Below, piece by piece: positions 11,428-63,955 of a DNA stretch of 64,000 nucleotides (position 1 is the first letter of the stretch; each line of letters opens with the position of its first letter). The position numbers and the translations under genes are program-made. The stretch spans positions 178,306 to 242,305 of the forward strand of contig CAYJKP010000002.1 of NCBI GenBank assembly GCA_964371245.1, written 5' to 3'. The notes below the pieces were generated by a model. The model did not search any database and had not been told where the DNA came from. It saw only the letters and a program-made list of their open reading frames with translations. Source of the DNA: an uncultured Gammaproteobacteria bacterium. Its GTDB lineage: Bacteria > Patescibacteriota > Patescibacteriia > JAHIZJ01.

Positions 11428-14400
11428 CTAGATCTTTCTCGTCCTCGGCAGCGAGTGAATGCCGCCCCTACCCTGCCGTTCATGGAGATCCCAGGCATAG
11501 CTGGCTAGCTGCGCCGGATCGATCGGGTCGCCATCAACGTACAAGAACAGGATATTGGCACCATCAACGTGGTGCAGCTGCGCTTGGGCGTACTTGGATG
11601 GCATGCAGCCCTGGGGACAGACGGCCACACCGCCATGGCGCAGGTCCACGATAGTCAGCGCCGCCTCGCCTTCAGGCGCGCCTTCGAAGTACGGTTTGAC
11701 CGCTGCCATAACAGGCTCGATTCTCGTGTGCGTGTTCCGGCCGATCGCGTGAGCGACGACGCGATCCAGGCGCCAGAATACCCACCACTGCAGGAGGGCC
11801 TTCAGGCTGACCGCCACGCGATTGAACTGATCGCGCTTGTGGCCGTGCCCTTGGGTCCAGGTGAGATACTGGATCCATTCGTGAATCGTTGAGCGCCGAA
11901 CCCTGACATTGTGGTCAGCCAGTATTCTGACCACATTGCCATTGGCATGGGGGTCTCTGACCACGTAGATCTCGCCCGAGAGGTGTCCCTGGACTACATT
12001 GGCCTCTCGCTCAGGATCAATCCAGATCGACTGAAACTCACGGACGACTCGGTCCAAGAAACCGGGTAGCCCCCAGTCGCACAGCCAATCTCGGATCTGA
12101 CCCGGCAAGCGCTGGGCTACCGGACGAACCTTCAACTGCTCTACCGCCCGCGCCATCGCCCACTGATACACTCGATCGACGTCAGCCGGGTTCCGGGCTA
12201 TCGGCAGATAGTAGCACCAGAGCTCGTCCAGCAGATCAGCCAGCATGACTGCGGCGCAGGCCTTAAGTCGCAGGTGTTTTCCCACGCCGTCATAGGCATT
12301 GTCCGATGAAGTAGCAAACAGGTGAACTGCTTGCGCTGGATCCAGCTGGGTCAGAATGATCCCGTGCTGCGTCCGGTACGAACCGAAGCGGCAGGGACCA
12401 GTCGTGGCCGGCATGAACCAGTAGAAGTGTTTGATCTCGGGATATTGCGGCAGAACCTCCCGGACCATGTGCTCGAGAACGCCGGTTACGTACATGTACG
12501 GGACGCATTCTTTTCCGGTCGCGTACCGGCCGCGTCCCAGACGAAGTATCTGGTCATTGGTCGGCGGGGCCGCGATTACCCTGATGCCGATTGACGAATA
12601 GACCGCGGTCAGCAAAGGCTCGAGGTTACCGAACTGACAGAGAACCAGCGCTGACTCAGGGTCATCCGGATTAAACGGCTTGCCCGTATCGTGTTCCTGA
12701 AGCAAGGTGAGATCGGAAACCAGCCCGCGCTTATCTCCGTCCCGATAGTGCCGACGCATGGCGTAGACACTCGACTGAATCCGCGTCGTGAAGCCGCCCA
12801 TGCCCGTATGCCCATCGGTTTCGATGATGCAGTAGGGCACGTCGGCAATGTACCGCAGCCAGTGCTCCAGAAAAGCGTCCGGACCGCAGGAATAGCACGT
12901 GATCATCAGGGGATAAACGCCGGGCCGACGGTGCAGGTCAACCACCGCCCTGAGAATCCTCTGCCCCTCGCCCCAGTACACCAGGTCGAGAAAAGGCGTG
13001 GTCGGATCCACCGGGTAGCAGTCAACCGGAATGGCCACGACGCCGCTGCCCTGAATGATCTCTGGAATCTGTCCGTTGATCGCCGGAGACAGCGTGACAT
13101 AGAGCCGACCCAGCACCACGACGGCTGGCACCCGGTGTACCTCGGCATAATCCAGTGCGCGCTGGCCGATCGCCAGACAACGCTCCTGAAAATCCCGCTG
13201 CACACCAACGGCCAGGTCGAACGCCCGAAGGCTCTCGGCCTTGGTACGGCCCAGCTCTCGTCCCATCGAGACGAAAACCTCTCGCACTTCTTCGCTCGCC
13301 TGCCAATTCAGCCCGAACTTGATTACCGGCCTCAGGATTTTCATCCCGGGATCCGATGAATCATTCGGATTTACTCCGTTGATGGCGGCAGCCACCAGCT
13401 CGGGCGTTCCCTGAACCAGCGGGCACGTACTACCGACGTCGCAGCCGCTCTCCCGAGGCAGCAAAACCACCTTGGGAAAGCAGATCAGATCAACGCCAAG
13501 CTCAACCGCCTGGTCAGCCAAGCCATGGGCAACCTTGACCGGCGCGCACATGTCTTTGCCCAAACTGATCTCCTCACCCCGCTTGAGGGTTTCGGTGGTC
13601 GGTTCAAGCACTTTGACATTCACGCCGAGGTTGGCCCAGAACGAGGTGAGCAGGGGCATGAACCGGACGTTGGCCAGCGTCAGGGGAACCGCCACTGTTG
13701 GCTGCCCCTCCCGATCCACCGGCAAGGCCCGGGTCAGTGCCTCGTGAAGTTTGCGCCGTTCGTCAAACGGCTTCGGTGCGTCGGTCGGCAGTCTGTTTCT
13801 GGCGTTCCCTTCGTGCAGCGGACACATGCCGCCCGACTTAACCGTAACCGTGCGATCGCCGATTGACACCTTTGTCCGGTCAATCCGGCACTTGGCGCCG
13901 CAGTCGCGATTGCCGCAAGCGAAGCTTGAGCGCTCGACGACCTTGGCCGCGAGGAACTGCTCGAGATCAAACGGCTGATTCAGGTCAATCTGTTCCTGAC
14001 GGCATTGCTCGAGCGTCAACAAGGCGATGCCAATAGCACCGGTAGCGCCCGGCCGAGGCGGTACGATTACCTTACGACCAGTTACTGCCGCGATCGCCAT
14101 AGGCAAAGCGATGTTGTTCACCGGCATGCCAAGCGCGAAGATGACCTCTTCCAGTCCCAGTTGTCCGACCAGCCGGTTTAACCAGTTGTGGGCAATGAAG
14201 TAGAAGCGGCCGGCAGCGATGTCTTGGACGGTAAAGCCCTCACCCAACGCCCGGTCGGCAATGTCTCCGGAGTAGACAACGCAGGTTTGGCCCATGTCGA
14301 TCGGCTCTCGCGATTCGAGCGCCCATCGGCCAAACTCCTGAATCGTCGCCTTCATCCGCCTCGCGTCATACTCAACTTCGAAACCTGTTCCCGCCGAGCA

Positions 14401-15774
14401 AGCCCGGTTCATGTCTGAAGCGACTGGCATTCCTTTCCGGATATTGACCACCTTGGCATCCTGGCCGCCCAACTCACAGATAGTTACGGATCGGCCATGC
14501 TCTGGATCGTAGTAGCACGCACCCGCGGCATGCGCGGTGATTTCTGTTTCAACCAGCATCTGATTCCGCAAACCGCCAAAGCAAGCCTCAGCCACGTCGT
14601 AGACCGCGCGCCGACCCGAACCGGTAAAACCGAGACTGACAATCTGAACTCGGTCTCCGACCGCGGCCAGCATTTGCCGAACGATCAGTTGCGCAGCGGC
14701 GACCGGATTGCTGTTGGTTGGAACATAGTCGTCCCAGACTCGGCGTCCGGTAGCTACGTCGACCAATGCCGCCTTGGTTCCAGTTGAGCCGGAATCAATG
14801 CCGAGCGCGGCTCGTCCGCTCCAATGTGCCAGATCAAAATCCGGCTCGGTCAGCTTCTGGACCAGATGAGCTGCTGTGGTGAGCGGCTTGAACGTACGGA
14901 TGCTCCGAGACTTCGGACGAACGACAGTTGCTGAATCAGCGGTGTAGCGAGATACCTGGCCAGCCATGACCAAATCAGCCGCGATCAATCCCGCACCCCA
15001 GGCTTCGAAATAGTCAGACTCGGGATGGATTTCAATCGTCGGCTGGCCGATCATCGACTGGAGAGAGTCCATAACCGGCTGATTCTTGGTCACGCCGCCG
15101 ATTACGATCACCCGCCCGTCAATCGAGTTCTTCCTAAACAGGGCGTAAACAGATGCGGCAATGCCTCGAAAATAGCTCTTCAGCAAGACCGCAATGTCTT
15201 CGCCCGCATTGGCTAGGTGAGTGATCTCAGACTGGGCGAACGCCGCACAGCGCGGAACTAACTCAACCACTCGGTCAGTTGCCTGCGCCGCAGTAATCGC
15301 CTCGGGTACGCTCATGTCGGCTCGGGCGCATTGCTTCTCAACCGCTTCACCCGTGCCAGCCGAACACTTTTCAGCCAGCGAATTAGAGTATTCACCACCT
15401 TGGTTGCGCGTGAGCACGCTGTAGCCCCCGGCGCTGATCCGGATCAGGTTGATCGGCTCGTGGCCGACACCCTCAACCGGCGGGAAGAAATGTTCGCAGG
15501 CGCGATTCAGAGCCGCATCTCTGGGAATGTCACTTTGAACTTGTCCCCCGAGAATGCTGCCCAAGCTGCCAGTGGCCACCACCTTGCGAATCCGTGAATG
15601 GTCGAGTCGGGCCCAGATCTGGCCGACCGCCCTTCCCGGATTGCGCTGATGGGGGCACAGCACTTCGTCAGCCTTCACCCAACTTCCATCAGATCGTTCC
15701 AGGACGATCGCCGCCACGGTAGTCCGCCCGACTTTCAGGCCGACCACCTGGTCTCTCTGAGCCATACTGATCAT
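11428..15774 (-). CDS. acyl-CoA dehydratase activase-related protein: two BadF/BadG/BcrA/BcrD (ASKHA) ATPase domains fused to a dehydratase-like DUF2229-type C-terminal region
   Basis: Two activase-type ATPase N-termini (LKVGRTTVAAIVLE and LGIDSGSTGTKAALVD), each with a GGV.KN...GA.G.AL tail. Cys-rich C-terminal half (CGNRDCGAKC...GGMCPLHEG). Start at internal ATG with SD AGAAGGAGG. 1449 aa. Confidence 0.7.
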   Translation of the reverse strand: MISMAQRDQVVGLKVGRTTVAAIVLERSDGSWVKADEVLCPHQRNPGRAVGQIWARLDHSRIRKVVATGSLGSILGGQVQSDIPRDAALNRACEHFFPPVEGVGHEPINLIRISAGGYSVLTRNQGGEYSNSLAEKCSAGTGEAVEKQCARADMSVPEAITAAQATDRVVELVPRCAAFAQSEITHLANAGEDIAVLLKSYFRGIAASVYALFRKNSIDGRVIVIGGVTKNQPVMDSLQSMIGQPTIEIHPESDYFEAWGAGLIAADLVMAGQVSRYTADSATVVRPKSRSIRTFKPLTTAAHLVQKLTEPDFDLAHWSGRAALGIDSGSTGTKAALVDVATGRRVWDDYVPTNSNPVAAAQLIVRQMLAAVGDRVQIVSLGFTGSGRRAVYDVAEACFGGLRNQMLVETEITAHAAGACYYDPEHGRSVTICELGGQDAKVVNIRKGMPVASDMNRACSAGTGFEVEYDARRMKATIQEFGRWALESREPIDMGQTCVVYSGDIADRALGEGFTVQDIAAGRFYFIAHNWLNRLVGQLGLEEVIFALGMPVNNIALPMAIAAVTGRKVIVPPRPGATGAIGIALLTLEQCRQEQIDLNQPFDLEQFLAAKVVERSSFACGNRDCGAKCRIDRTKVSIGDRTVTVKSGGMCPLHEGNARNRLPTDAPKPFDERRKLHEALTRALPVDREGQPTVAVPLTLANVRFMPLLTSFWANLGVNVKVLEPTTETLKRGEEISLGKDMCAPVKVAHGLADQAVELGVDLICFPKVVLLPRESGCDVGSTCPLVQGTPELVAAAINGVNPNDSSDPGMKILRPVIKFGLNWQASEEVREVFVSMGRELGRTKAESLRAFDLAVGVQRDFQERCLAIGQRALDYAEVHRVPAVVVLGRLYVTLSPAINGQIPEIIQGSGVVAIPVDCYPVDPTTPFLDLVYWGEGQRILRAVVDLHRRPGVYPLMITCYSCGPDAFLEHWLRYIADVPYCIIETDGHTGMGGFTTRIQSSVYAMRRHYRDGDKRGLVSDLTLLQEHDTGKPFNPDDPESALVLCQFGNLEPLLTAVYSSIGIRVIAAPPTNDQILRLGRGRYATGKECVPYMYVTGVLEHMVREVLPQYPEIKHFYWFMPATTGPCRFGSYRTQHGIILTQLDPAQAVHLFATSSDNAYDGVGKHLRLKACAAVMLADLLDELWCYYLPIARNPADVDRVYQWAMARAVEQLKVRPVAQRLPGQIRDWLCDWGLPGFLDRVVREFQSIWIDPEREANVVQGHLSGEIYVVRDPHANGNVVRILADHNVRVRRSTIHEWIQYLTWTQGHGHKRDQFNRVAVSLKALLQWWVFWRLDRVVAHAIGRNTHTRIEPVMAAVKPYFEGAPEGEAALTIVDLRHGGVAVCPQGCMPSKYAQAQLHHVDGANILFLYVDGDPIDPAQLASYAWDLHERQGRGGIHSLPRTRKI

Positions 15775-15981
15775 TCGACTGCCTCCTTCTATTCGTGTCC
15801 ACTGATTGCCATACCTACGTAAAAACACGGGTTTTCAAAGACCGTGTTTATCTTTATTTTCAAGCCAATTTGGCTATATACCTTGTACCAGTTTCAGGCC
15901 GGCTTGTCAAAAAGAAAAAACGGCTCAAACCAGGGGGTTTGAGCCAAACTGACTGTGGTGCCACCGAGTGCACCGAAAGGG

Positions 15982-20129: not shown

Positions 20130-22102
20130 CCGCAACGCCAGCAAAAAGCAAAAAAACGCCTCAACGGCGGTGGTTGTGGGTAACCCTAGCCGTCGTTTTT
20201 ATAATTATTATCGGTATCGCCGGCCTACTCGTCTATCAAGTCTCAGCCTACCACGACAGCGTGATCCCGGGCGTTCGACTGGCCGGACGGGCCCAGGCTG
20301 GATTCATGAGCCGTCTCAGCCAACCAGACCTTGAGTCGCTCCTCACCACCTACCAACAAAATATTGATGACGAAGGCTTTACTTTCGAATTTCAGACGCG
20401 AAAAGCAAATCTTCCCTCGCTCGTCCAGTCGACGGTCGATCCAGATCTTTCCCAGCAGCTTTTTTCGGTAGACATCACCGCGACGAAAGACGCCGTCTGG
20501 AGCTACGGCCATCACGCTTCGTTTGTCCGCAACGCGGGGGATGTTATGCGAGCGTTTTTTATCGGGATTGATGTCCCGGTCCAGTACACGCTTAATCGTG
20601 CCGGCGTGAAAAAAGTCCTACAGGAGAATTTTAAAGAATACGACAATCCAGCGACAAATCCGCAAATAGCCGTCCAGCCAGGCGGAACGATTTCCGTCAC
20701 ACCGGAGCAGTCCGGCGAAACCTTGGATTATGACCAAGCCTTGTCTGAATTAGCCGCTCAGATTGAAGCGCTTGATAATGAAACAATAACGCTCAAAAAA
20801 ATATATGACCAGCCGACAATCACAACCGATGAGATTGCGTCGGCTCGAACCGACCTCGGTACCCTGATAAAAACCCTTCCCTGGACACTCAGCTATGAAG
20901 ACAAGCGTTGGGCGATTACCTTGGCCGAGGTAACGCATTGGTTTCGCTTCAGCCGTCGTGACGATGGCTCGGTCACCTTCGATTTCGATCCCGCGGGTGT
21001 TGCCCAATTCCTCGATGCGACGCCCGGACCAATCATTAATGTTGAGGCGAAAGAAGGAAAATTCAAGATCAATAACGGCCGCGTCACGGAATTTCAAGTC
21101 AGTACGCCCGGCCAACACATTGACCTCGACAAGACAGTCGCTAATCTCAACGAAGCGATGATTGCAAAAGGCGCAACAGAAAGCCTGATCGCCGTTCAGA
21201 TAACCGAACCGCAGTCAAAAGAAACGGATGTCAACGAGCTTGGCATCAAGGAACTGGTGGCTGAAGGACGGACCGATTTCAAGGGCAGTCCAGCCAACCG
21301 GATACACAATATCACCGTCGGCGCCGAAACGCTAAACGGTCTCGTCATCAAGCCGGACGAGGAATTTTCATTGATCAAAGCACTCGGAAAAATCGACGCC
21401 TCAACCGGCTACAAGAGCGAGCTGGTCATCAAGGGAAATAAGACGGTGCCGGAATATGGCGGCGGGTTATGCCAAATTGGTACGACCTTCTTCCGGCTCG
21501 TTTTGAATACCGGCCTGCCGGTGCTGGAACGGCAAAACCATTCCTACCGCGTCTCGTATTACGAACCGCCGGTTGGTAAAGACGCCACGATCTATGATCC
21601 CAAGCCGGATTTTCGCTTTACAAACGACTATGATCATCACTTGCTTTTGCAGACCCGGATTGAGGGTACGCAATTGATTTTTGAGTTCTATGGTACCAAA
21701 GACGCGCGGACGATCGAACAGTCCGATCCGAAAATTTATAATTACGTCAGCCCTGGTCCAACCAAGATGGTTGAAACTGAAGATCTGGCCCCGGGCGAGA
21801 AAAAATGCACCGAAAAAGCCCACACCGGCGCTGACGCGGAATTCACCTATACCGTCACGTATCCGAATGGGGAGGTTAAACCAACCACCTTTAAATCACA
21901 TTATAAGGCATGGCCAGCCGTTTGTCTGGTTGGAAAACAGCCCAGCCCGCCTGAAACACCCCCGGTCGAACCACCCGCGACCAATACAAATGCAAACGCC
22001 AACACGAACGCCAACGTGAACACGAATTCTAACGCAAACACAAATACGACGACCAACACGAACACGAATAGCAACGCTAACGTTAACGCAGAAACCCCAT
22101 AA
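20126..22102 (+). CDS. VanW family protein (YoaR-like), membrane anchored, with Asn/Thr-rich low-complexity C-terminal tail
   Basis: N-terminal TM. VanW domain core (GYKSELVIKGNKTVPEYGGGLCQIGTTFF). C-terminal TNTNANANTNANVNTNSNANTN tail. Confidence 0.75.
   Translation: MTATPAKSKKTPQRRWLWVTLAVVFIIIIGIAGLLVYQVSAYHDSVIPGVRLAGRAQAGFMSRLSQPDLESLLTTYQQNIDDEGFTFEFQTRKANLPSLVQSTVDPDLSQQLFSVDITATKDAVWSYGHHASFVRNAGDVMRAFFIGIDVPVQYTLNRAGVKKVLQENFKEYDNPATNPQIAVQPGGTISVTPEQSGETLDYDQALSELAAQIEALDNETITLKKIYDQPTITTDEIASARTDLGTLIKTLPWTLSYEDKRWAITLAEVTHWFRFSRRDDGSVTFDFDPAGVAQFLDATPGPIINVEAKEGKFKINNGRVTEFQVSTPGQHIDLDKTVANLNEAMIAKGATESLIAVQITEPQSKETDVNELGIKELVAEGRTDFKGSPANRIHNITVGAETLNGLVIKPDEEFSLIKALGKIDASTGYKSELVIKGNKTVPEYGGGLCQIGTTFFRLVLNTGLPVLERQNHSYRVSYYEPPVGKDATIYDPKPDFRFTNDYDHHLLLQTRIEGTQLIFEFYGTKDARTIEQSDPKIYNYVSPGPTKMVETEDLAPGEKKCTEKAHTGADAEFTYTVTYPNGEVKPTTFKSHYKAWPAVCLVGKQPSPPETPPVEPPATNTNANANTNANVNTNSNANTNTTTNTNTNSNANVNAETP
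21980..22090 (+). repeat. imperfect tandem hexanucleotide-like repeat (AAY-RCN units) encoding the Asn/Thr/Ala tail of VanW
   Basis: aatacaaatgcaaacgccaacacgaacgccaacgtgaacacgaattctaacgcaaacacaaatacgacgaccaacacgaacacgaatagcaacgctaacgttaacgca. Confidence 0.6.
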
Positions 22103-32509: not shown

Positions 32510-34000
32510 ATGGGAAACATATTAAAACAATTACGCTCACGGGAAACGATCATCGGCGGTTTGTTCGTCCTTGCCACCGTGCTGCTCTTAGGATTGGCCA
32601 CCGCCAAGCTGCCGGTTCTGCTGCCGCTCGGCGGAGTTGTCCTGGCCGGCCTGGCGCTCTTCACCTACCGCTCGCCGTTCCTGGCGCTGCTGGTGATCAC
32701 CTTCTTCCTGCCGTTCGAGCGCATCGGTTCGTACGACGTCGCCGGCATCACCGTCCGGCCGAGCCAGATCCTGGCGCTCATCTTGATCGTCGTCTGGTTT
32801 TTGCACGGCGTGATCAATCGGAATTTCCGAACCCAGAAGAATCCGATCGTCATCCCGCTGATCGCCTTTCTCCTGATCAATCTCGTCTCGCTGACCGGCG
32901 CAGCCAATATCCAGCGCTCCATCCTCGTGTTCGCCTTTACCCTTTTTACCATCGGCTTCAGCCTCCTCATCCCGAATTACGTCACCGACGAGGTGAAGCT
33001 GCGGCGCGTCATCCGCATCCTCCTGATCACCACCACCTTGGTCGCGCTCTTTGGCCTGTGGCAATTCTTCGGCGACATGATTGGCCTGCCGACCACCCTG
33101 ACCGGGCTGCGCGAGCACTATACGAAGATCGTCTTCGGCTTTCCGCGCATCCAGTCGACCGCGCTTGAGCCGCTTTACTTCGCGAATTTCCTGCTCATCC
33201 CGATCGCCGTGATCTACGCGCTCCTGATCAGCCGCTCAAGCTCGATCAAAATGATCCGGCTCCTGCCGCTCCTCATCCTGACCGTTTTGAATCTCGTCCT
33301 GACCGTGTCACGCGGCGGCTATCTCGGCGTGATCGTCATCATTCTCGTGGTGAGCTTTGTCTATCTGCGGAAGATATTTCGTTGGCAATTTCTGGTTTCG
33401 CTGGTTGTTGGGATAGTGGTGGTTTGGTTTTTTGCCATCCGGGCACTCGGTTTCGGCGACGTTTTCCAGCTGAACGCCGAAACCTTCCTGACCCACATCG
33501 TCGATTCCTTTTCCGGACCAGCCTATACCGAGCGTATTGAGACATTTCAGTGGGCTGAAGAAGCCTGGCGGGCAAATCCGATCATCGGCATCGGGCCCGG
33601 TCAGTACGGACCGTTCGTCTCGTCTCATCCGTATATTGAGCCAAAGGAAGGCTGGAAAATCGTGAATAACGAGTTTATCGAATTGCTGGCGGAAACAGGT
33701 GTCCTCGGCTTGGCTGCGTTCCTGGTTGTCATCGGCAGCCTCGTCATCCGCTCGCTCAAGGCTATTGTCCGCGCGCGCACCCCCTATCTCCGGGCGCTCA
33801 TGACCGCGCTCCTGGCCGCCCTGCTCGGCATCCTTGCCCAGTATATGACCTTCTCTATCTTATACATCATGCACGTCTGGTTCCTGATCGGACTCATGGT
33901 GGCGGTCCAGAACATCATCCTGAATCCAGCCGTGGCCGAACCCGAACCAAAACCCGAAGAATTGGTTAGCCATACTACCATTCAGCCGCCTCAGCCATGA
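32510..34000 (+). CDS. O-antigen ligase/polymerase family membrane protein (Wzy_C domain)
   Basis: Polytopic protein with the TVSRGGYLG motif in a periplasmic loop, characteristic of Wzy_C/WaaL-like proteins. Confidence 0.65.
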   Translation: MGNILKQLRSRETIIGGLFVLATVLLLGLATAKLPVLLPLGGVVLAGLALFTYRSPFLALLVITFFLPFERIGSYDVAGITVRPSQILALILIVVWFLHGVINRNFRTQKNPIVIPLIAFLLINLVSLTGAANIQRSILVFAFTLFTIGFSLLIPNYVTDEVKLRRVIRILLITTTLVALFGLWQFFGDMIGLPTTLTGLREHYTKIVFGFPRIQSTALEPLYFANFLLIPIAVIYALLISRSSSIKMIRLLPLLILTVLNLVLTVSRGGYLGVIVIILVVSFVYLRKIFRWQFLVSLVVGIVVVWFFAIRALGFGDVFQLNAETFLTHIVDSFSGPAYTERIETFQWAEEAWRANPIIGIGPGQYGPFVSSHPYIEPKEGWKIVNNEFIELLAETGVLGLAAFLVVIGSLVIRSLKAIVRARTPYLRALMTALLAALLGILAQYMTFSILYIMHVWFLIGLMVAVQNIILNPAVAEPEPKPEELVSHTTIQPPQP

Positions 34001-35597: not shown

Positions 35598-36233
35598 ATG
35601 GATAATCTCCCACATATTGATAAGCCCGGCCTGGCCGTCGACATCGACGAGACCCTCTCCTGGACCATCGGCTACTGGACGGAAAAGATGATGGAGATAT
35701 TCGGCAATCCCGAAAACCTCACGGTCAAGGAAATTATCGAGAAATACCGCTACACCCAGAACGTGCCCTACTGGCAGTCGGCCGAGGCGAAGCAATGGAT
35801 GCACGACAAGATCCATTCCGACGATCTGCAGAAAGAACTGCCGCTGATCGAAGGCGCGAATGACTACTTACAAAAAATATATTCTATCATTCCGATCGCG
35901 GCTTACATCACTGTCCGGCCACAGTCAGTAATCAAGGGTACGCAAACCTGGCTCGATAAGCACGGTTTTCCAAAAGCGCCCATCATCTGCAAGCCGCTGG
36001 ACGTAGTACATGGCGACGGCAATAAATGGAAAGCCGAAGTCCTGCAAAAGCTATATCCGGATGTCCTGGGAATGATCGACGACAACGCCAAACTGCTCGA
36101 TTTCCTCGACGCCAAATACCCGGGCGTTATCTTTCTCTACGACCACCACACGGTTGAGAGCACCCTCAACGTCATCGCCTGTAAAAATTGGGGGGAGGTG
36201 TTTGGAGAGGTGGAGAGAAATTTCAATAAATAA
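35598..36233 (+). CDS. HAD-superfamily hydrolase, possibly 5'(3')-deoxyribonucleotidase-like
   Basis: HAD motif I DIDET(L) near the N-terminus and a C-terminal DD motif (MIDDNAKL). 211 aa. Confidence 0.45.
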   Translation: MDNLPHIDKPGLAVDIDETLSWTIGYWTEKMMEIFGNPENLTVKEIIEKYRYTQNVPYWQSAEAKQWMHDKIHSDDLQKELPLIEGANDYLQKIYSIIPIAAYITVRPQSVIKGTQTWLDKHGFPKAPIICKPLDVVHGDGNKWKAEVLQKLYPDVLGMIDDNAKLLDFLDAKYPGVIFLYDHHTVESTLNVIACKNWGEVFGEVERNFNK

Positions 36234-36392
36234 TCAATAAAACATTATCTAATAGTTATAAATGAGGTATTTACGAGAATAAACTAATAAATATTAGTAG
36301 TAATCCATTAATAAGATGGATTTTTTTATGCTAATATTAGTTATTTTTAGATAATATATTTAGATCTATTATTTTTATCCACATTTTTTATC

Positions 36393-36420
36393 TTGACACA
36401 ATATTATATTATGATAGTAT
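36393..36420 (+). promoter_or_regulatory. sigma70-like promoter (TTGACA-16-TAGTAT) at the left end of the low-GC island
   Basis: Near-consensus hexamers within a 150-nt AT-rich spacer. The ORF tool start (TTG) coincides with the -35 box, so the real start is placed at the downstream ATG. Confidence 0.5.
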
Positions 36421-36452
36421 ACATATATATTAATTCATCTAATTTTAACAAC

Positions 36453-37622
36453 ATGACAAACAATCCTCTATTATTCAAACTCCCTGCCATTAGAATTCGG
36501 CAGAGAGAGGAAACAAAACAAGCAATATATACCGCAGTTGTAAAAGCAAAAGATTTCATTACAAGAGAAACTGAAAGGTTTGTAATCGATTATTATAAGA
36601 GAGAGGATGGGATCGAAGATGGCTATCAAAGACCATTGACACCCATCTCAGTAACGAAAATTAAAGATTATATTCTAAAAGAGGTAAAAAATCCTTTATT
36701 GCCTACGAGTATTCTCGTGAATGCGCGAGATAGACTAAAATTTGAAGCAATTAACGACCCATACGGCTACCTGACCATAGATCAACCATTATTTATTATT
36801 GATGGACAACATAGATTCGAAGCCTGGAAACAACTTATGCATGATGAAAAATTAAGAGAAGTTTTAGGTGATTATGAGTTTCCAGTTGTTATCTTGTCGG
36901 GCTTTGAGCAAATAAAAGAAATAGAGCAATTCTATGTAATAAATTCAAGGCAAAAAAGAATAAAAACAGATTTAGCTCAAAGAAATTTCTTAAAGCTTGC
37001 AGGTAATAAAAATACGGAGTCAATAATCCCGGAAAGATCTAAATGGACATTATACGCAACTAAAATAGTGGATATTCTGAATGAGCAAATAAATGATTCG
37101 ATCTGGCACGATAGAATCATATTACCAAGCGACGGGTCTGATTTAAGGAAAAGGAAGATTATTTCACAGGCGTCTTTTGTTTCATCTTTGAAGCCAATGT
37201 TCATTGGTAGAGATGCAATTTTCGCCATCAATGACGATGAACTCCCGAAATTAATAAAAAAGTGGGCAGATCTTGTTAATAGCTATTGGGATACAGTCTA
37301 TAAAATATATCCGGAAGCGATAGATAATCTTCATGATTACTCCTTAATGAAAACGGTTGGGGTCTTCTCGCTACACTTATTATTGGTAAAGATTATAAAT
37401 CAAAAAGGGCTAAAAGACACTATTCTTGATCCGAAAGTACAAACAGACATATTAAAAGAATCAAAAGAAAAAATTGAAGAAGCTAAAAAGCATACGTTTA
37501 AGTTGGATTTCTGGAGATCAAAAGTGTCAGATATTAAAAAGGACAGGGGTGAATATGCCGGATCATATTCATCATCTGTTGGACATAATAAAATTGTAGC
37601 CAGAATATTCCTGGGCTATTAA
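36453..37622 (+). CDS. DGQHR-motif protein (DndB/ParB-like nuclease superfamily), stand-alone
   Basis: Exact FIIDGQHRF motif, the diagnostic core of DndB/DGQHR domains. 389 aa. ~32% GC versus ~55% flanks. No dndACDE or dpdA partners in the window. Confidence 0.7.
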   Translation: MTNNPLLFKLPAIRIRQREETKQAIYTAVVKAKDFITRETERFVIDYYKREDGIEDGYQRPLTPISVTKIKDYILKEVKNPLLPTSILVNARDRLKFEAINDPYGYLTIDQPLFIIDGQHRFEAWKQLMHDEKLREVLGDYEFPVVILSGFEQIKEIEQFYVINSRQKRIKTDLAQRNFLKLAGNKNTESIIPERSKWTLYATKIVDILNEQINDSIWHDRIILPSDGSDLRKRKIISQASFVSSLKPMFIGRDAIFAINDDELPKLIKKWADLVNSYWDTVYKIYPEAIDNLHDYSLMKTVGVFSLHLLLVKIINQKGLKDTILDPKVQTDILKESKEKIEEAKKHTFKLDFWRSKVSDIKKDRGEYAGSYSSSVGHNKIVARIFLGY

Positions 37623-37630
37623 CAAGCCAT

Positions 37631-38272
37631 ATGTTCACCGAAACTAATACATGGTTTTATACGTTGAGTACTATTTCCCAGACTTGCGCTGCTATACTTG
37701 CGCTCGGTGCAACATTCGTTGTATTTAAGCTTGATAAAGTAAAAATAGCAATTGATAATTATAGAGGTAGAGTAGTTCGATTATTACAGCTCTGGCATAG
37801 AGGTGAAAAAGCGCCAGATAAGTTTTTTGATGAGCCTGATGAAAAAATAATAGAACAGTACATAACAAGCGTAATTGATAGCGATGAAGATGTATTTGAC
37901 AGAAACGGTGTTATAGAATTATATGAGCTTTTTGAAGGAGTTCGTTTGAATTATGCTGTATCAAAAGATGCATTTATAATGAGCAACGGAATAAAACTAG
38001 ATCATGAAGAAAGAAAAAGGTGGTGTAACAGAATGGCTCACCTCATGAAAAAAAACGTTATACTAAATAATAGAATATATAATTATTTACGGTTTTCTAT
38101 AATATCTCTAGCGATGAGTATAATAATAAGCGTCGGATTGTTAATAGCGAAACCCTTAAATTTACCTGTTGATAAAAATACTTTAATTGTAATTGTGGCT
38201 TTTGCAATTTTATCAATTGGGTACAGCGCTTATGCTGTTTGGAAAATCGCCAGATCAAAACCTATTCAATAA
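37631..38272 (+). CDS. membrane protein co-transcribed with the DGQHR protein (1 N-terminal and 2 C-terminal TM helices, ~110-aa acidic soluble core)
   Basis: Starts 8 nt after the DGQHR stop. Same low GC. Hydrophobic segments WFYTLSTISQTCAAILALGATFVVF and FSIISLAMSIIISVGLLIA/LIVIVAFAILSIGYSAYAV. Confidence 0.55.
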   Translation: MFTETNTWFYTLSTISQTCAAILALGATFVVFKLDKVKIAIDNYRGRVVRLLQLWHRGEKAPDKFFDEPDEKIIEQYITSVIDSDEDVFDRNGVIELYELFEGVRLNYAVSKDAFIMSNGIKLDHEERKRWCNRMAHLMKKNVILNNRIYNYLRFSIISLAMSIIISVGLLIAKPLNLPVDKNTLIVIVAFAILSIGYSAYAVWKIARSKPIQ

Positions 38273-38299
38273 ATATGTGACCATAAAATACTGTATACA

Positions 38300-38701
38300 A
38301 TGCTCTACCTAAAAAATCCCCACCGGGCGATTAAACACCTCATCGTCATCCCGCTCGTCTCCACCCTGATCATCCCCCTCGCCCTCCTCGACCTCTGGGC
38401 GGAGATCTACCACCGGGTCGCGTTCCCGCTGTACCGCTTCCCCTATCTGAAGCGGCGGGAATACATCAAGCTCGACCGGCACAAGCTGAAATATCTGTCG
38501 TTCTGGGAAAAGTGCTACTGCGCCTATTGCAGCTACGGCAACGGCGTAATCAACTATTGGCTGCGGATGGCCGGCGAGACCGAGCGCTACTGGTGCGGCA
38601 TCAAGCACGCGGCTGACCCCCGCTTCCACGAGCCGGCGCACCAGCGGAAGTTCGCGGAGTATAATAACGAAGAGGATTTTAACCGCAAATATAAGCAATA
38701 A
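38300..38701 (+). CDS. hypothetical protein with N-terminal TM and a CYCAYC...WCG Cys cluster
   Basis: 133-aa ORF of normal GC. No family assigned. Confidence 0.4.
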   Translation: MLYLKNPHRAIKHLIVIPLVSTLIIPLALLDLWAEIYHRVAFPLYRFPYLKRREYIKLDRHKLKYLSFWEKCYCAYCSYGNGVINYWLRMAGETERYWCGIKHAADPRFHEPAHQRKFAEYNNEEDFNRKYKQ

Positions 38702-59440: not shown

Positions 59441-59727
59441 CTCTGTCACCCGCCGCCGCGCAACGCATTGTTGCTACCGGCGGTTTTTCTTACCTAGCGG
59501 AAATTGTTAATAAATGTCTTTATAAAAATTATAGCGATATTTATACACAGCCTGTTGATAAATTTCCTTGACACCCATACGGCACGGGACTAAGGTGGAA
59601 ACAACGATATCTGTGAGGCGATGAAGCGTAGTACTTAATTGGTCGCTTAGCCATCCTAGTTAAATAGAGGAGGGCTGGGACTACGCGGAGCCAGTAGCGA
59701 AACCGATCACGATTTCACTGACTTATC

Positions 59728-59755
59728 AGCCTCACTTTGTTGAGGTTTTTGTCTT
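59728..59755 (+). terminator. rho-independent terminator closing a ~150-nt ORF-less unit
   Basis: CCTCActttgtTGAGG + TTTTTGTCTT. Upstream at ~59567 there is TTGACA-17-TAAGGT. Confidence 0.4.
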
Positions 59756-59929
59756 ATATTGGGCAAAAAACTCAAGCATCCCACTCTTATCCGAATACAT
59801 CCCTCGGGTAAGTCAGGGTGCTGGAGGGATTACCCTGCCAAACGCACCTTGAGATTTTAACCACGGATAATTCGCAGAGTGTCTCTAAACCCGCAGCCAC
59901 GGAATCGTCCCGATCAGAAGGAGGGAGCC

Positions 59930-60682
59930 ATGCACCGACTCAGTGTCCTCTGTTGCATCGCCCTGGTAGCAGTGTTCAATGCCAGCTGCGCCCAGGCGAC
60001 CGAACCGTCAACCACAACCCGTGGCCCGGTTTGGGCCTACGGCGCCGAAGTCCAAGGCGAGGCCTGGTTTGAGGAACGCGAGGGCGTTTCCTACTACCAG
60101 GGAAGGTATCAGTACTGGCCGCGCGCCCACAGGGAGGAGGCGCCGGCTGCTCTGACGGAACTCGACCCCCTGACCGCCCACGCGTGCGAAGTGGCTGGCA
60201 CCGTCCTCGATGAGGCATCGGCGGCCGCCGGTAGCGCCGTGACGCAGTCCGACTGGGAACGTCTCTACACGCAGGTGCTGGAGGCGCACCGCGATGTCGT
60301 CATTTCCTACACACCGAACGGCCGGACCATCGCAATCGAGTTCGCCAATCTCCCGGTCAAGTACGTCATCAGCTGCCCGGTCAATCCCGCGCGGTCCGGC
60401 CGGATTGCGTCGGATCCCGACAGCGTCCGGCAAACCCAGGTCGATCGCTTCTGGAAGTTCTACAACAACGGGTCCTGGGTCTTCTGGGGCTCCGACTACT
60501 TCATGGTCGTGCCGCCGATCTGGCAGGCAAAAACCATCGCCGCCATCGACAGCGTGACCGCTCTCAAGAACAGCGGGCTCCAGGGCGAAGCGCTCACCCG
60601 CGCTATCGTCGCCATCGACATCAAGAACACCGCGCTCGAAGAGGACAACTTCGTCAGGGACCTGATCAGCGAGGGGAGGTAA
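59930..60682 (+). CDS. hypothetical secreted protein / putative lipoprotein (high GC)
   Basis: SD GGAGGGAG. Signal peptide MHRLSVLCCIALVAVFNASC with a lipobox-like FNASC. 250 aa. Confidence 0.5.
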   Translation: MHRLSVLCCIALVAVFNASCAQATEPSTTTRGPVWAYGAEVQGEAWFEEREGVSYYQGRYQYWPRAHREEAPAALTELDPLTAHACEVAGTVLDEASAAAGSAVTQSDWERLYTQVLEAHRDVVISYTPNGRTIAIEFANLPVKYVISCPVNPARSGRIASDPDSVRQTQVDRFWKFYNNGSWVFWGSDYFMVVPPIWQAKTIAAIDSVTALKNSGLQGEALTRAIVAIDIKNTALEEDNFVRDLISEGR

Positions 60683-60686
60683 GGCC

Positions 60687-62165
60687 ATGCGCATCCTGAA
60701 GCTCTGTTTGTTCAACATCTTCGGGCTCGCCTGTCTCTTCACCTGCGCTCTCGCATCACAGCCCGAACCGCCCGGCCAATGCAAAACGCCGGGCGCCTAT
60801 TTCGCCCGTCTCGAAGAGCCCTGGCAGTTCATCAACGGCGCGCAGCCTGACGCGGAGAACGCGCTCAATCACCAGGGATACACCTTCGTCTGGCACGGGA
60901 ACCCCGACACCACATTCTACCCTGCCTTGCCGGACCCGACTCTGACGGAGTTCGTGTCTGACATCGGGGCAGACGCTGGGGCATTCTTCCTAAGTGGAGA
61001 CTCTGACAACCAGTGCACTGCTGTCGAGGTCTACCCACACACCACTCGCGGACGTCGGCTCGCTCTCGCTGCTGGCCAGAACTATGCCAACCACGGCTTC
61101 AGCGGCGAGGTATACCTCTACGAAGACGCCTGGCAGAGCGGCTGGGCAGTCGCCTTGTCTTGGTCTGGAGTATCATCGCGCTGTAACTTCAACGACGCGA
61201 TCGTAGACATCGAGACCTGCATCAGCACCGCCTCGGGAACGTGGACCGGAGCCAGAGTGGAATTCGTCAATGACGACTATCTCTCTGACTCAGAGAGCTT
61301 CACGAACACGGACGCGATCTGGGGCGGGCTCGACGGACAGGACGGCTGGAAACGCCGAACGGCCAGTTGGGGCTTTGCCCACGCTTCTTCCAAGTGCCAC
61401 ATGCGCGAACCGCAGACCGACGGGGGCAAGACGACGCTGGCCCCCTGCGTGAAGTGGTTCAACTTCGACCACGGCGACCAGATTCCCGACCAGGGCCTTG
61501 ATCTCCAGGTCCTCTTTGACACCGAGATCACGACGGTCGGAGGTGCGCTGAGCGCCTTCGAGGTCACCCGACCCGGAGGCGATCCAGTCACCTTCACCGT
61601 GACAAACGCCCAGCTGGCGAATGACACGACTCTGACCGTCCACGTTGCGCCTGTCACCGGTTCCTTCGGCGCCTCCTACCTCTCCGCCCTCTCGAACAAT
61701 ATCGTCAGCAAGTGCAACAGCAATGCCCATCTCGACGGTAGCCAAGAGGGCGGTCCTGACGACATGACCTGGCGGCTGAAGCACGGCCAGGATCCGGCGG
61801 CGGAGATTTGCACCTTCGCCGTCGACGAGAACGGCCTCGCCCGGTGGGAGGTCTCGTCCGAGTATCGAACCGAGAAGTACCTTGTCCAGGGCCTCTCCGG
61901 CGCTGACTGGGTAACGCTCGCTACGATTCCGGCCGGCCAGTCCCACTATGAACAGTCCGTCGGCGCCGGCTACCCGGCCTATCGCCTGATCGAAGTCGAA
62001 ACCGGCGGCCACGAGATCATGCAGGAGACTGCCGTCGCTCATCCGATCCCGACTGCAGCACCGGACACGCTTCTGACCGATGACCAACTGCGAGCACTGC
62101 TCGACGAGAAAGAGCATAATCGCGGTGGCGGAACACCGTCCTGCGGGCGCGGCGGCGACACCTGA
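60687..62165 (+). CDS. secreted protein, N-terminal portion of a probable T9SS cargo (signal peptide present). Ends at in-frame TGA
   Basis: Signal peptide MRILKLCLFNIFGLACLFTCALA. Same reading frame as the downstream ORF. See finding. Confidence 0.5.
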   Translation: MRILKLCLFNIFGLACLFTCALASQPEPPGQCKTPGAYFARLEEPWQFINGAQPDAENALNHQGYTFVWHGNPDTTFYPALPDPTLTEFVSDIGADAGAFFLSGDSDNQCTAVEVYPHTTRGRRLALAAGQNYANHGFSGEVYLYEDAWQSGWAVALSWSGVSSRCNFNDAIVDIETCISTASGTWTGARVEFVNDDYLSDSESFTNTDAIWGGLDGQDGWKRRTASWGFAHASSKCHMREPQTDGGKTTLAPCVKWFNFDHGDQIPDQGLDLQVLFDTEITTVGGALSAFEVTRPGGDPVTFTVTNAQLANDTTLTVHVAPVTGSFGASYLSALSNNIVSKCNSNAHLDGSQEGGPDDMTWRLKHGQDPAAEICTFAVDENGLARWEVSSEYRTEKYLVQGLSGADWVTLATIPAGQSHYEQSVGAGYPAYRLIEVETGGHEIMQETAVAHPIPTAAPDTLLTDDQLRALLDEKEHNRGGGTPSCGRGGDT

Positions 62166-62195
62166 AGCTTCGTCATCATCGCAGCCCCACAGTTT

Positions 62196-63641
62196 GTGGG
62201 GGACAGCCAGTACATGTCCAACTACTGGACAGCGAAGGGCTACACCGTCACCATCGTCTCGACCTCTAGCTTCGGCGGCGACATCCTGAACGGCGTCAAG
62301 AACTACGTCCGAAACAACTCCGCCCAGTACTTCCTGCTCGTCGGCGACTACTCCGACCCAGCCTGGGGCGGTTCGCTCTGGAACGCCAACGGCTGGCCGA
62401 CCATCTACCAGGGGTATCTACAGGACGGTTACCCGTCCGGCGGTAACCCCACTCACAACCTGATCCCGACCCAGGTCGTACCGGATCCGTTGCCGCGGAA
62501 CCAGAATATGGCGTACTTCGCGCCCTACTGGTTCTTGAGCGACATGATCCTCTACGGCGATACGGACGACAACGGACTGCCCGACAAGACGGTCACCCGC
62601 CTGCCCTACACCACTGCCAGCCAGTACCTGAATCACATCTGGAACATGGAGTACTACAACGACGCCGGTTATCCGGCGGACTCGTACCAGGTCCAGTTCT
62701 TCGTGGGCGATGTGGATCACTACGAGGACGGCGAGGGCGACTTGGCGGTCGCCATGGCCGACAGTATCACCTCGATCCTGCCGGGCTACCAGTACGTCAA
62801 CCGCATGCTGGAATCGACCTATTTCGACGCCTACACCAGGGCGCTGATGGCGGCCCAGCGCTGGAACTCGGACCTCGAGCTCGTCATCTTCGCGAGTGCC
62901 ATGGGGAATCGGTACAAGCCGGGGAATTTCTTCTCGGTCAGCGCCGGCTTCTCCATGAGCATGATCTACTCCGGAACCTGGTGCCCCTGGGTTATCGGCA
63001 GTTCCTGCGACACCGGCGATGAGTTCTTCGTGATGCATCCAAGCTACCAGGAAACGGTCCTCAACCGGTTCCTGACCGCCTCGAACAAGGGTGCGATCGG
63101 CTGGGCTGGACCGACCGCCGGGACCTGGCAGGACGCGAACGTCGTTATCGCTGCCACGATCGTGCACCGCATCTACGAAGATCCATCTCGCCCGGTGGCT
63201 GAGAGTATCCGCTTGGCGCTGTGTGATATCCTGATCGCGTACGATCCTGAGACGCATCCGGACATCGTGAACACCGCCTTGTCGTATGCTGCCTTCTGCG
63301 ATCCGCTCACGCCGTTCCTGCACGCCAATCACGTCGTCGCCGTGGACGAGCAGAGATCCGACATCCAGCTGACTCTCGCCCAGAACCGTCCGAATCCCTT
63401 CGGCGGACAGACGGCCATTCGGTTCACGCTGCCTCAGGCCGGGCCGGTCAGCCTGCGCGTGTATGACGTGGCCGGGCGAGTCGTCCGTACGCTCATCAAC
63501 GGTCTGAGCCAGCCCGGTGCCTACCAGGCCGTCTGGAACGGAATGAACGACGACGGTCGGCTGGTCAGCCAGGGCATTTACTTCGCCCGTCTCGCGGCCC
63601 AGGGTCGCGAACTCGAGCGCAAGTTGGTGCTGATGCGCTGA
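62196..63641 (+). CDS. C-terminal portion of probable T9SS cargo protein (protease-like catalytic region + type-A T9SS C-terminal sorting domain)
   Basis: Last ~85 aa (NRPNPFGGQTAIRFTLPQAGPVSLRVYDVAGRVVRTL...SQGIYFARLAAQGRELERKLVLMR) match the T9SS CTD consensus. No signal peptide of its own. Listed start is an alternative codon (GTG). Confidence 0.55.
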   Translation: MGDSQYMSNYWTAKGYTVTIVSTSSFGGDILNGVKNYVRNNSAQYFLLVGDYSDPAWGGSLWNANGWPTIYQGYLQDGYPSGGNPTHNLIPTQVVPDPLPRNQNMAYFAPYWFLSDMILYGDTDDNGLPDKTVTRLPYTTASQYLNHIWNMEYYNDAGYPADSYQVQFFVGDVDHYEDGEGDLAVAMADSITSILPGYQYVNRMLESTYFDAYTRALMAAQRWNSDLELVIFASAMGNRYKPGNFFSVSAGFSMSMIYSGTWCPWVIGSSCDTGDEFFVMHPSYQETVLNRFLTASNKGAIGWAGPTAGTWQDANVVIAATIVHRIYEDPSRPVAESIRLALCDILIAYDPETHPDIVNTALSYAAFCDPLTPFLHANHVVAVDEQRSDIQLTLAQNRPNPFGGQTAIRFTLPQAGPVSLRVYDVAGRVVRTLINGLSQPGAYQAVWNGMNDDGRLVSQGIYFARLAAQGRELERKLVLMR

Positions 63642-63763
63642 TCCGTGGAACCTTGAACCTTTGACATCTCGGTGGAATGGCTTCATCCGAAGTCACTCCA
63701 CCATTTTCTCAAGGGCTGAAGAAATCAGCTTGCCTCTAATAAAAAATGAAAGGGGGTGACAGC

Positions 63764-63955
63764 ATGAAAAAATTTATTTTTGGCCTCATGGTCGCCATTA
63801 TGATTGCCGGAAGCATCGGCGCTTTCGTCATCATGACAAAAGCGCCGGCGCAGGCCCGACCACTCGAATACTCCATAGATTGTTCCTGGGGCGAAATCAA
63901 GGATTGCTATGGCGGTGGTTGTAATCACTGTTGCCCGGAAAACTGCAAGCCGTAG
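63764..63955 (+). CDS. small secreted Cys-rich peptide (signal peptide + 6-Cys ~30-aa mature region)
   Basis: SD AAAGGGGGTGA. Signal peptide MKKFIFGLMVAIMIAGSIGAFVIMTKAPAQA. Mature part has C-x8-C-x4-C-x2-CC-x3-C. The same SD motif recurs at 63980-63997 ahead of an ATG at the window edge. Confidence 0.4.
   Translation: MKKFIFGLMVAIMIAGSIGAFVIMTKAPAQARPLEYSIDCSWGEIKDCYGGGCNHCCPENCKP

Follow-up and report, generated by a model that had tools for sequence, protein, structure and literature searches.

The gene described here lies on the forward strand at positions 60687 to 63641 of a 64-kb stretch of contig CAYJKP010000002.1 (called 'the window' throughout), and is interrupted by a single in-frame UGA codon. 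It appears as two open reading frames (ORFs) in the same frame, an upstream one of 492 aa with an ATG start (60687-62165) and a downstream one of 481 aa with a GTG start (62196-63641). Between them lie the TGA at 62163-62165 and 10 sense codons, and the coordinates of this arrangement, from which the original prediction for the locus had started, were confirmed. Gene callers split the locus into a 'hypothetical protein' and a 'C25 family cysteine peptidase', an automated two-gene annotation that masks the true product. A search of the whole window found no further pair of same-frame ORFs split by a single stop in a manner resembling 60687-63641.

One gene across the in-frame UGA

By inspection, the upstream ORF starts with a signal peptide (MRILK, a hydrophobic core and ALA/S) and bears no C-terminal sorting domain, while the N-terminus of the downstream ORF has no signal peptide. 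The domain at the end of the downstream ORF scored 39 bits against FlgD_ig (gathering threshold, GA, 27), 28.1 bits against TIGR04183 Por_Secre_tail (cut-off 23), and 19.3 bits, under the GA of 27, against Pfam PF18962. The division of terminal signals between an upstream ORF with a signal peptide and a GTG-initiated downstream ORF without one was also as first described; a signal peptide and a C-terminal sorting domain are found on a single polypeptide only if the UGA is decoded. Pfam family Peptidase_C25 (PF01364) matched the downstream half at 70.4 bits (GA 23, E = 2e-19, profile positions 1 to 372 of 374). This match starts at the second residue past the TGA, so that the ten 'spacer' codons are already part of the downstream domain. 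Sequence searches of the PDB gave matches to FlgD only, for the C-terminal domain, and none for the N-terminal half (N-half).

At E < 1e-30, a profile search among 1.84 billion representatives returned about 250 members of the family, of which most are single ORFs of 930 to 1000 aa that cover both halves. All 37 intact homologs that were aligned are single ORFs across the junction. At the TGA column they have E (9 homologs), N (5), L (4), and also R, D, T and others, and Cys in none. The syntenic orthologs checked at the DNA level (L001, L005, L018, L019 and L020) were intact in five cases out of five, and those closest at the DNA level read AAC, AAT or ACC where the TGA stands, a sense codon within one ORF and not two genes. 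ORFs limited to the N-half form only two clusters at 90% identity, both in the clade that bears the TGA. Two apparent members limited to the C-terminal half (C-half), P0164 and P0253, were considered as further split genes and ruled out, being truncated at contig edges. The closest outgroup homolog, P0003, is 46% identical to the N-half; it breaks off at 703 aa within the C25 domain, with about 560 nt lacking a gene call behind it, and may represent an independent interruption of the same gene. The 37 junction-spanning homologs and the start of the C25 match just past the TGA bear out the view that a single secreted protein of about 984 aa is the unit of function. We conclude that the locus is one gene and not two, with caspase-like, two immunoglobulin (Ig)-like, gingipain-like and C-terminal Ig domains in order.

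A structure was predicted with AlphaFold2 from an alignment of 38 sequences, with a mean predicted local distance difference test (pLDDT) of 88.8. Confidence was low at the signal-peptide junction, at residues 482-491, and in the linker ahead of the C-terminal domain. In this model, residue 493, the position of the TGA, ends a disordered linker and is one residue ahead of the first strand of the gingipain-like domain. The C-half has a gingipain fold in the model, for which Foldseek returned RgpB (E = 1e-16), Kgp (E = 2e-13) and PorU. Residues 495-499, whose codons lie between the TGA and the GTG, form the first strand of this fold, beta1, behind which comes a helix (501-516); any product begun at the GTG (residue 504) or at an ATG at 62214 (residue 510) would therefore be without a core strand.

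The candidate catalytic residues leave the 'protease' label only partly supported. In the C-half, Cys774 is invariant in the family and sits in a CDTGDEF motif. The position expected for the catalytic His, 33 residues before Cys774, is Met741 and is variable across the family alignment; the 33-residue spacing is what we take to be the His-to-Cys spacing of RgpB, which makes this a tentative mapping of the position. The N-terminal domain has a predicted caspase-like clan-CD fold, with His105 in 37 and Cys178 in 39 of 40 family members. Residue 105 (60999-61001) is Asp in the TGA-bearing clade alone; residue 178 is encoded at 61218-61220. Of the earlier description of the gene as a protease, the gingipain fold stands; the canonical His position is variable in the C-half, and the TGA clade has Asp for the His that the family conserves in the N-terminal domain, so that protease activity is uncertain for this clade. 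As a separate observation, one and the same clade shows the gain of an in-frame UGA and the loss of the putative catalytic His105.

The best matches of the GyrA protein (70 to 82% identity) were to Patescibacteria group, Candidatus Kerfeldbacteria and Candidatus Nomurabacteria sequences. On this evidence the host is a bacterium of the Candidate Phyla Radiation (CPR)/Patescibacteria and not of the Fibrobacteres-Chlorobi-Bacteroidetes (FCB) type, contrary to one of the earlier suggestions, an FCB-like host bearing a type IX secretion system (T9SS). No T9SS core gene (PorK/L/M/N, SprA, PorV, PorU) was found within the window, and T9SS is described as limited to Bacteroidetes (PMC11611037). The label 'T9SS cargo' is thus unsupported, although a sorting-type domain is present: the signal peptide and the domain passing the TIGR04183 cut-off were recovered, and the T9SS-bearing host was not. 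The GC content of the gene is 8 to 15 points above that of its flanks in each lineage with comparable flanks (0.62 versus 0.53 in the window, 0.61 versus 0.46 in L006). Despite this difference, an island acquired by horizontal gene transfer is ruled out by conserved synteny, the orthologous genes adjoining the same Lactamase_B_3, gyrA, nusB, rnc, DUF456 and pyrF genes in related genomes. Horizontal transfer of a high-GC gene had been proposed as well; a recent transfer does not agree with the place of the gene as a syntenic resident beside gyrA, nusB, rnc and pyrF in relatives.

Selection on both halves and the RNA around the UGA

An identical 492-aa ORF ending at the TGA occurs on 22 contigs, the longest of 1.18 Mb, which together represent at least 10 independent assemblies, and the TGA was present in all nine loci that were re-aligned. 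Within the species of the window, one locus (L013) has TGA-GGC for TGA-AGC at the equivalent of 62166, a +4 A-to-G change that makes Ser494 a Gly. The same TGA codon is found in two diverged relatives: L002, a 159-kb contig of a metagenome-assembled genome labelled Patescibacteria group bacterium, with about 90% DNA identity and a synonymous divergence (dS) of 0.25 to 0.34 from the window; and L006, a Logan contig whose N-half protein is 81% identical, at a dS of about 1.0. The window, L002 and L006 are referred to below as the three TGA lineages.

Between the window and L002 there were 238 substitutions, no indels and no further stops. Third codon positions accounted for 98 of 135 differences upstream of the TGA and 72 of 103 downstream. 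The ratio of nonsynonymous to synonymous divergence (dN/dS) for this pair was 0.104 upstream and 0.106 downstream of the TGA, with 0.088 in the C-terminal domain; for the window and L006 it was 0.12 upstream and 0.16 downstream. In a neutral simulation of the divergence from L002, 3.4 and 2.5 new stops were expected where none was observed (probability of zero 0.028 and 0.068). Among the TGA lineages there are no further stops, and the length differs by one codon, once; the C-half is free of stops and frame-breaking indels over 1473 nt. The retention of the TGA across a dS of about 1, with low dN/dS on both sides of it, implies long-term function of both halves, which by these comparisons have long been kept functional with the TGA in place.

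Three origins had been offered for the interruption in the original prediction: an assembly error, a recent pseudogenising mutation, or programmed readthrough of the UGA. The occurrence of the ORF on 22 contigs, in no fewer than 10 assemblies, and the nine re-examined loci rule out an assembly error. A decaying or recent pseudogene is ruled out by the dN/dS values (0.10 to 0.16 in the two halves), the third-position bias, the stop simulation and the retention of the TGA. The lone in-frame stop had been the sole ground for suspecting a sequencing or assembly error or a recent inactivation, and with the same TGA in two diverged lineages and purifying selection on both halves, nothing of that ground remains; the probability left to such an origin is negligible. 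Once these two options are excluded, the evidence favours the third, programmed recoding.

A 7-bp hairpin is found downstream of the TGA (hairpin B, CCCCACA-GUU-UGUGGGG, -10.4 kcal/mol). The distance first reported for it, about 25 nt, is a fair approximation: its first base lies 20 nt past the last base of the TGA, leaving a 19-nt spacer, and its loop begins 26 nt past the TGA. The GTG 'start' at 62196 falls within its 3' arm. It is unlikely to be there by chance, a perfect 7-bp hairpin beginning 5 to 40 nt past a random site with p = 0.026. Hairpin B is unchanged across the three TGA lineages, while flanking codons differ synonymously (GCA>GCC, GAC>GAT, CAG>CAA), and it was absent from the four intact orthologs without the TGA that were folded. 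It requires codons that are rare in this gene rich in GC at third positions: TTT accounts for 3 of the 43 Phe codons and CCA for 6 of the 54 Pro codons. Taken together, the five codon choices that the hairpin requires have a probability of 1.5e-4. Synonymous variability was counted over the codons that encode one and the same amino acid in all three TGA lineages. From codon -5 to +12 around the TGA, one of 15 such codons varied, compared to 50% gene-wide, and this interval is the global minimum of the gene in windows of 12, 15 and 20 codons.

A consensus fold of the three lineages suggests that hairpin B could be part of a larger three-part element, with an outer stem and a helix A that holds the UGA in its loop (Table 1); with three sequences, this model is a hypothesis. 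In the outer stem there is one compensatory synonymous pair, 62144/62210 (TGC>TGT with CAG>CAA). Compared to shuffled sequences, the fold of the whole 91-nt region was not significant (z = -0.69); the signal is therefore in the local hairpin and not in the overall energy. Nor is the 95-nt run of identity between the window and L002 exceptional when taken alone, as a 98-nt run occurs elsewhere; identity around the TGA gained significance only when L006 was added. An Rfam search at the site gave no selenocysteine insertion sequence (SECIS) or other family, only noise (E > 2), and a consensus scan gave no internal promoter or terminator close to the TGA. A-to-I editing of the UGA by TadA was considered as the UGA lies in a predicted loop, and was set aside; TadA edits in a UACG context, which this loop does not have.

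Proposed UGA recoding and its alternatives

Elsewhere in the window UGA is an ordinary stop. It ends 7 of the 39 genes inspected, including ATGA overlaps at 33997 and 53348 and the gene itself, whose own end coincides with the C-termini of its homologs. This stop usage and the absence of other split ORFs rule out genome-wide recoding of TGA (translation table 4 or 25), in agreement with what had been stated at the outset. The in-frame TGA is the only one in 64 kb. In each of the TGA lineages, UGA is followed by A at the internal stop (UGA-A) and by U at the terminal one (UGA-U). UGA is known as the leakiest stop, a +4 A favouring misreading by tRNA-Trp and a +4 U tightening termination (PMC5289835).

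We propose that the internal UGA is a selected, site-specific recoding site from which two isoforms arise, with near-cognate readthrough as the favoured mechanism, and we give this reading a probability of roughly 45%. In a genus-level clade, selection would keep the UGA, in a linker between domains, together with an RNA element made of the hairpin and flanking helices. For most ribosomes translation would end at the UGA, giving a 492-aa N-terminal protein that folds by itself; a fraction would decode the UGA and produce the full-length 984-aa protein, which alone would join the signal peptide to the gingipain-like and C-terminal domains. A standard near-cognate tRNA, such as tRNA-Trp at UGA-A, would most likely be the decoder, aided by the local RNA context, and the gene would be expressed from an operon controlled by a cyclic di-GMP (c-di-GMP)-II riboswitch. 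The comparisons require a translated and functional C-half and argue for its being joined to the signal peptide and to strand beta1, from which we infer decoding of the UGA in a fraction of events. Near-cognate readthrough would require no added machinery, and would account for a linker position that is variable and is not Cys in homologs.

Several points weigh against this proposal. The 19-nt spacer puts the hairpin outside a ribosome that has the UGA in its A site, and this is a geometry that SECIS elements match; known stimulators of readthrough have spacers of about 8 nt. The three lineages stand on two deep branches only, and the covariation amounts to one compensatory pair. UGA-A is found also at two ordinary gene ends in the window. 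The hairpin could be an inverted repeat acting at the level of DNA. Finally, translation past the UGA, the identity of the decoder and the isoform ratio are all things that we infer from comparison. The narrower claim, that a bacterial chromosomal gene uses selenocysteine-independent programmed UGA readthrough, assisted by RNA structure, to set the ratio of short to full-length protein within an operon controlled by c-di-GMP, is held a little more tentatively than the general one.

Among the alternatives, insertion of selenocysteine (Sec) deserves the most attention, although we regard it as unlikely. The UGA would be a Sec codon, hairpin B a SECIS bound by SelB, and Sec493 a linker residue, possibly paired with a clade-conserved Cys at -7 (CxRGGDTU). 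The original prediction had dismissed this because the hairpin was taken not to be a canonical SECIS, a ground that does not hold. When tested against the consensus for bacterial SECIS (bSECIS) elements, which covers the loop, the stem, a G in the loop, a spacing of 16 to 37 nt and the energy (PMC13188914), hairpin B agreed on every count, with a 3-nt loop GUU (or A-GUU-U), a 7-bp stem, 26 nt and -10.4 kcal/mol. The consensus was passed by 3.9% of the UGA triplets in the window, and only 1.3% of all 2285 UGA triplets there were followed by an equally good SECIS-type hairpin. Moreover, the UGA and the hairpin are conserved together at fixed spacing, the spacer suits the recruitment of a factor more than a mechanical roadblock, and the Cys at -7 is common to the three lineages despite a TGC>TGT change, which is synonymous. 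Sec is disfavoured on other grounds, namely the lack of any Cys homolog, the variable linker position and the patescibacterial host. Cys homologs and redox motifs are found for nearly all known selenoproteins (PMC13188914), whereas none of the 37 homologs has Cys at the UGA column, which is a variable position in a disordered linker with no redox site. Full-text literature searches gave no report of Sec use in Patescibacteria. Neither selA, selB, selD nor tRNA-Sec was found in the 64-kb window, in about 20 kb of flanks or in the other loci fetched, and no Rfam SECIS family matched; the longest contig with the protein, of 1.18 Mb, may be most of a small genome.

The locus could also encode two polypeptides, with an obligate stop at the UGA and a C-half made by termination-reinitiation or by internal initiation at GTG 62196 or ATG 62214. 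Purifying selection on the C-half demands only that it be translated, by whatever route; gene callers annotate two genes, L006 has TGA-AGG-ATG, with an ATG 3 nt past the stop, and the N-half is predicted to fold alone. There is no conserved restart codon, however: ATG 62214 is CTG in L006, and the window is without a start codon for 10 codons past the TGA. The GTG is sequestered in the conserved hairpin and, to judge from the 19-nt spacer, would lie beyond a terminating ribosome, and the sequence near the TGA is rich in GC, whereas other genes have AT-rich leaders. A C-half product would be without strand beta1 in the window and L002, and without a signal peptide in all lineages, though its C-terminal domain is of extracellular type. 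Every other family member seen in full is a single ORF, and the C-half-only entries that were checked are contig-edge truncations. We therefore consider two separate products improbable. Less probable again is ambiguous decoding of UGA throughout the lineage, by a UGA-suppressing tRNA or a weakened release factor 2, as an early stage of reassignment in which an in-frame UGA is tolerated. The host does belong to a phylum, Patescibacteriota, with at least two known reassignments of UGA: the codon is read as Gly in JAEDAM01 and as Trp in family JAKLIH01 (PMC13092985). But TGA is used at ordinary gene ends and is found in frame only once in the window, and the site-specific hairpin and synonymous constraint point to a local signal. 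A tRNA scan of the window and 11 loci found no tRNAs of any kind, a result that weighs neither for nor against a suppressor tRNA or tRNA-Sec. Very improbable, finally, is an untranslated C-half, that is, a truncated gene whose conservation reflects a DNA-level element, such as a palindromic protein-binding site, or an overlapping feature. The hairpin is indeed a perfect DNA palindrome that could bind a dimeric protein, and the loss of the conserved His105 from the N-domain in this clade suggests a functional change. A dN/dS of 0.11 to 0.16 at a dS of about 1, the third-position bias and the freedom from stops are nevertheless incompatible with untranslated DNA, and the constraint around the TGA, of some 54 nt, is too short for an overlapping gene.

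The proposed readthrough site can be compared with several known systems. As in bacterial selenoprotein genes such as E. coli fdhF, a conserved in-frame UGA is found in a gene under purifying selection, with a stem-loop in the coding sequence that fits the bSECIS consensus at fixed spacing; the differences are those already given, a disordered and variable linker without Cys homologs, a small-genome patescibacterial host and no Rfam SECIS family. Programmed readthrough is exemplified by the phage Qbeta A1 protein, made by reading past a UGA, by retroviral gag-pol and by eukaryotic readthrough genes. The present case resembles these systems in its leaky UGA, in the purifying selection on the in-frame extension, in the suppressed synonymous variation and conserved 3' RNA structure, and, as proposed here, in a short product functional alone to which the long product adds domains. 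It differs from them in being a bacterial chromosomal gene, with a spacer of 19 nt instead of about 8 nt and with the UGA in the loop of a predicted helix. In the dnaX gene, which encodes tau and gamma, a -1 frameshift or transcriptional slippage gives the short form; there, too, one ORF yields truncated and full-length proteins, at a fixed ratio, from a site-specific recoding signal at a domain boundary, whereas here the short form would be the default and decoding of the stop would give the long one.

In the patescibacterial reassignments of UGA (Gly in code 25, Trp in JAKLIH01), this codon is likewise taken as sense within this phylum, but UGA here still ends ordinary genes as well as this one, and a single site with its own RNA signal is involved. 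Because Patescibacteria have repeatedly reassigned UGA, the proposed readthrough site could be a site-specific precursor state of codon reassignment. With the gingipains and other C25 cargo of T9SS in Bacteroidota (RgpB, Kgp, PorU), the protein shares the fold of its C-half, the Cys in CDTGDEF, the TIGR04183 Ig-like domain and, on the full-length protein, the N-terminal signal peptide. It differs from these in the Met at the expected His position, in its additional caspase-like and two Ig domains, and in a host phylum not known for an outer membrane or T9SS.

To our knowledge, well-supported programmed stop readthrough in bacterial chromosomal genes is very rare, selenocysteine apart. The comparative signatures of this site are a UGA kept across a dS of about 1, selection on both of its sides, a minimum of variability centred on the stop, and a hairpin of rare codons present only where the UGA occurs. 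If readthrough takes place, these would mark a compact element of about 70 nt and a natural case in the CPR of isoforms controlled through a leaky stop. If the residue is selenocysteine, this would be a selenoprotein that lacks Cys homologs, from a lineage for which the literature searches found no report of Sec.

Operon, riboswitch and neighbouring genes

The gene is the second of a two-gene operon, the features of which are collected in Table 1. An aptamer of the c-di-GMP-II class (Rfam clan CL00127) precedes this operon in six of the six loci examined. In the five loci other than the window, it was detected with RF01786 at the same position upstream of the orthologous operon (L002, 4915-5025; L001, 8904-9021; L005, 2932-3044; L006, 16-125; L018, 123-206), with 56.2 bits in L018 against a GA of 53.5, and 43 to 47 bits in the other four. 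The hairpin and T tract right behind the aptamer are likely its expression platform, a function suggested by their position. The upstream gene of the operon encodes a protein with a hydrophobic N-terminus that matches no Pfam family; it is called at 250 aa in 9 assemblies, and precedes the C25 gene at all orthologous loci. The operon thus places a c-di-GMP-II class riboswitch of Patescibacteria upstream of a gene for a secreted clan-CD protein.

Table 1. Features of the operon and of the split gene, in window coordinates
Feature	Positions	Strand	Basis or remark
c-di-GMP-II class riboswitch aptamer	59606-59716	+	RF03169, 40.5 bits (GA 40)
Terminator-like hairpin and T tract, right behind the aptamer	59728-59757	+	Consensus scan
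Upstream operon gene, 250 aa from ATG 59930	59930-60682	+	ORF open from GTG 59879
N-terminal half, residues 1-492: signal peptide 1-23; caspase-like clan-CD alpha/beta domain ~30-245; two Ig-like beta-sandwiches ~255-450; helix 465-478; disordered linker 480-492	60687-62162	+	
Predicted RNA element around the UGA	62142-62212	+	RNAalifold, 3 lineages
Outer stem of the RNA element	62142-62148/62206-62212	+	
Helix A of the RNA element, UGA in its 12-nt loop	62149-62159/62172-62182	+	
In-frame UGA (UGA-A context), proposed recoding site, residue 493	62163-62165	+	
Gingipain-like (Peptidase_C25) domain	62166-63326	+	PF01364, AlphaFold2 model, Foldseek, alignment
Hairpin B	62185-62191/loop 62192-62194/62195-62201	+	Identical in three TGA lineages
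C-terminal Ig-like domain (FlgD_ig/Por_Secre_tail type)	63384-63638	+	Profile matches, dN/dS 0.088
True terminal stop, UGA-U in all three TGA lineages	63639-63641	+	Homolog C-termini coincide
Probable operon transcription terminator, imperfect GC-rich hairpin followed by ATTTTCTC	63671-63710	+	Sequence reading; no call in consensus scan

Downstream of the operon lie tandem genes of about 60 to 70 aa (63746-63955, and another ORF from 63998; 4157-4821 in L006). They have a signal or transmembrane segment and a Cys-rich tail (CSWGEIKDCYGGGCNHCCPENCKP) and are conserved, with a dN/dS of 0.064, which suggests that they encode secreted Cys-rich peptides.

Elsewhere in the window, a low-GC island at 36001-38300 (GC 0.34, and 0.25 to 0.30 at third codon positions) contains a DndB-like gene (36393-37622) and a 213-aa ORF, and probably represents a module for defence or modification that was acquired horizontally. 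On the reverse strand, positions 11428-15828 hold a 1466-aa gene of the BcrAD_BadFG/DUF2229 'CoA enzyme activase' type. The GC content of this region, 57 to 60%, is well above the window average and unusual for a small-genome Patescibacteria bacterium. The label 'Gammaproteobacteria' of the related locus L001 is probably a mislabel, its GyrA being 82% identical to that of the window and clustering with Patescibacteria. The same contig contains, at 21119-21959, part of a 16S rRNA gene, which bears a 76-nt insertion.

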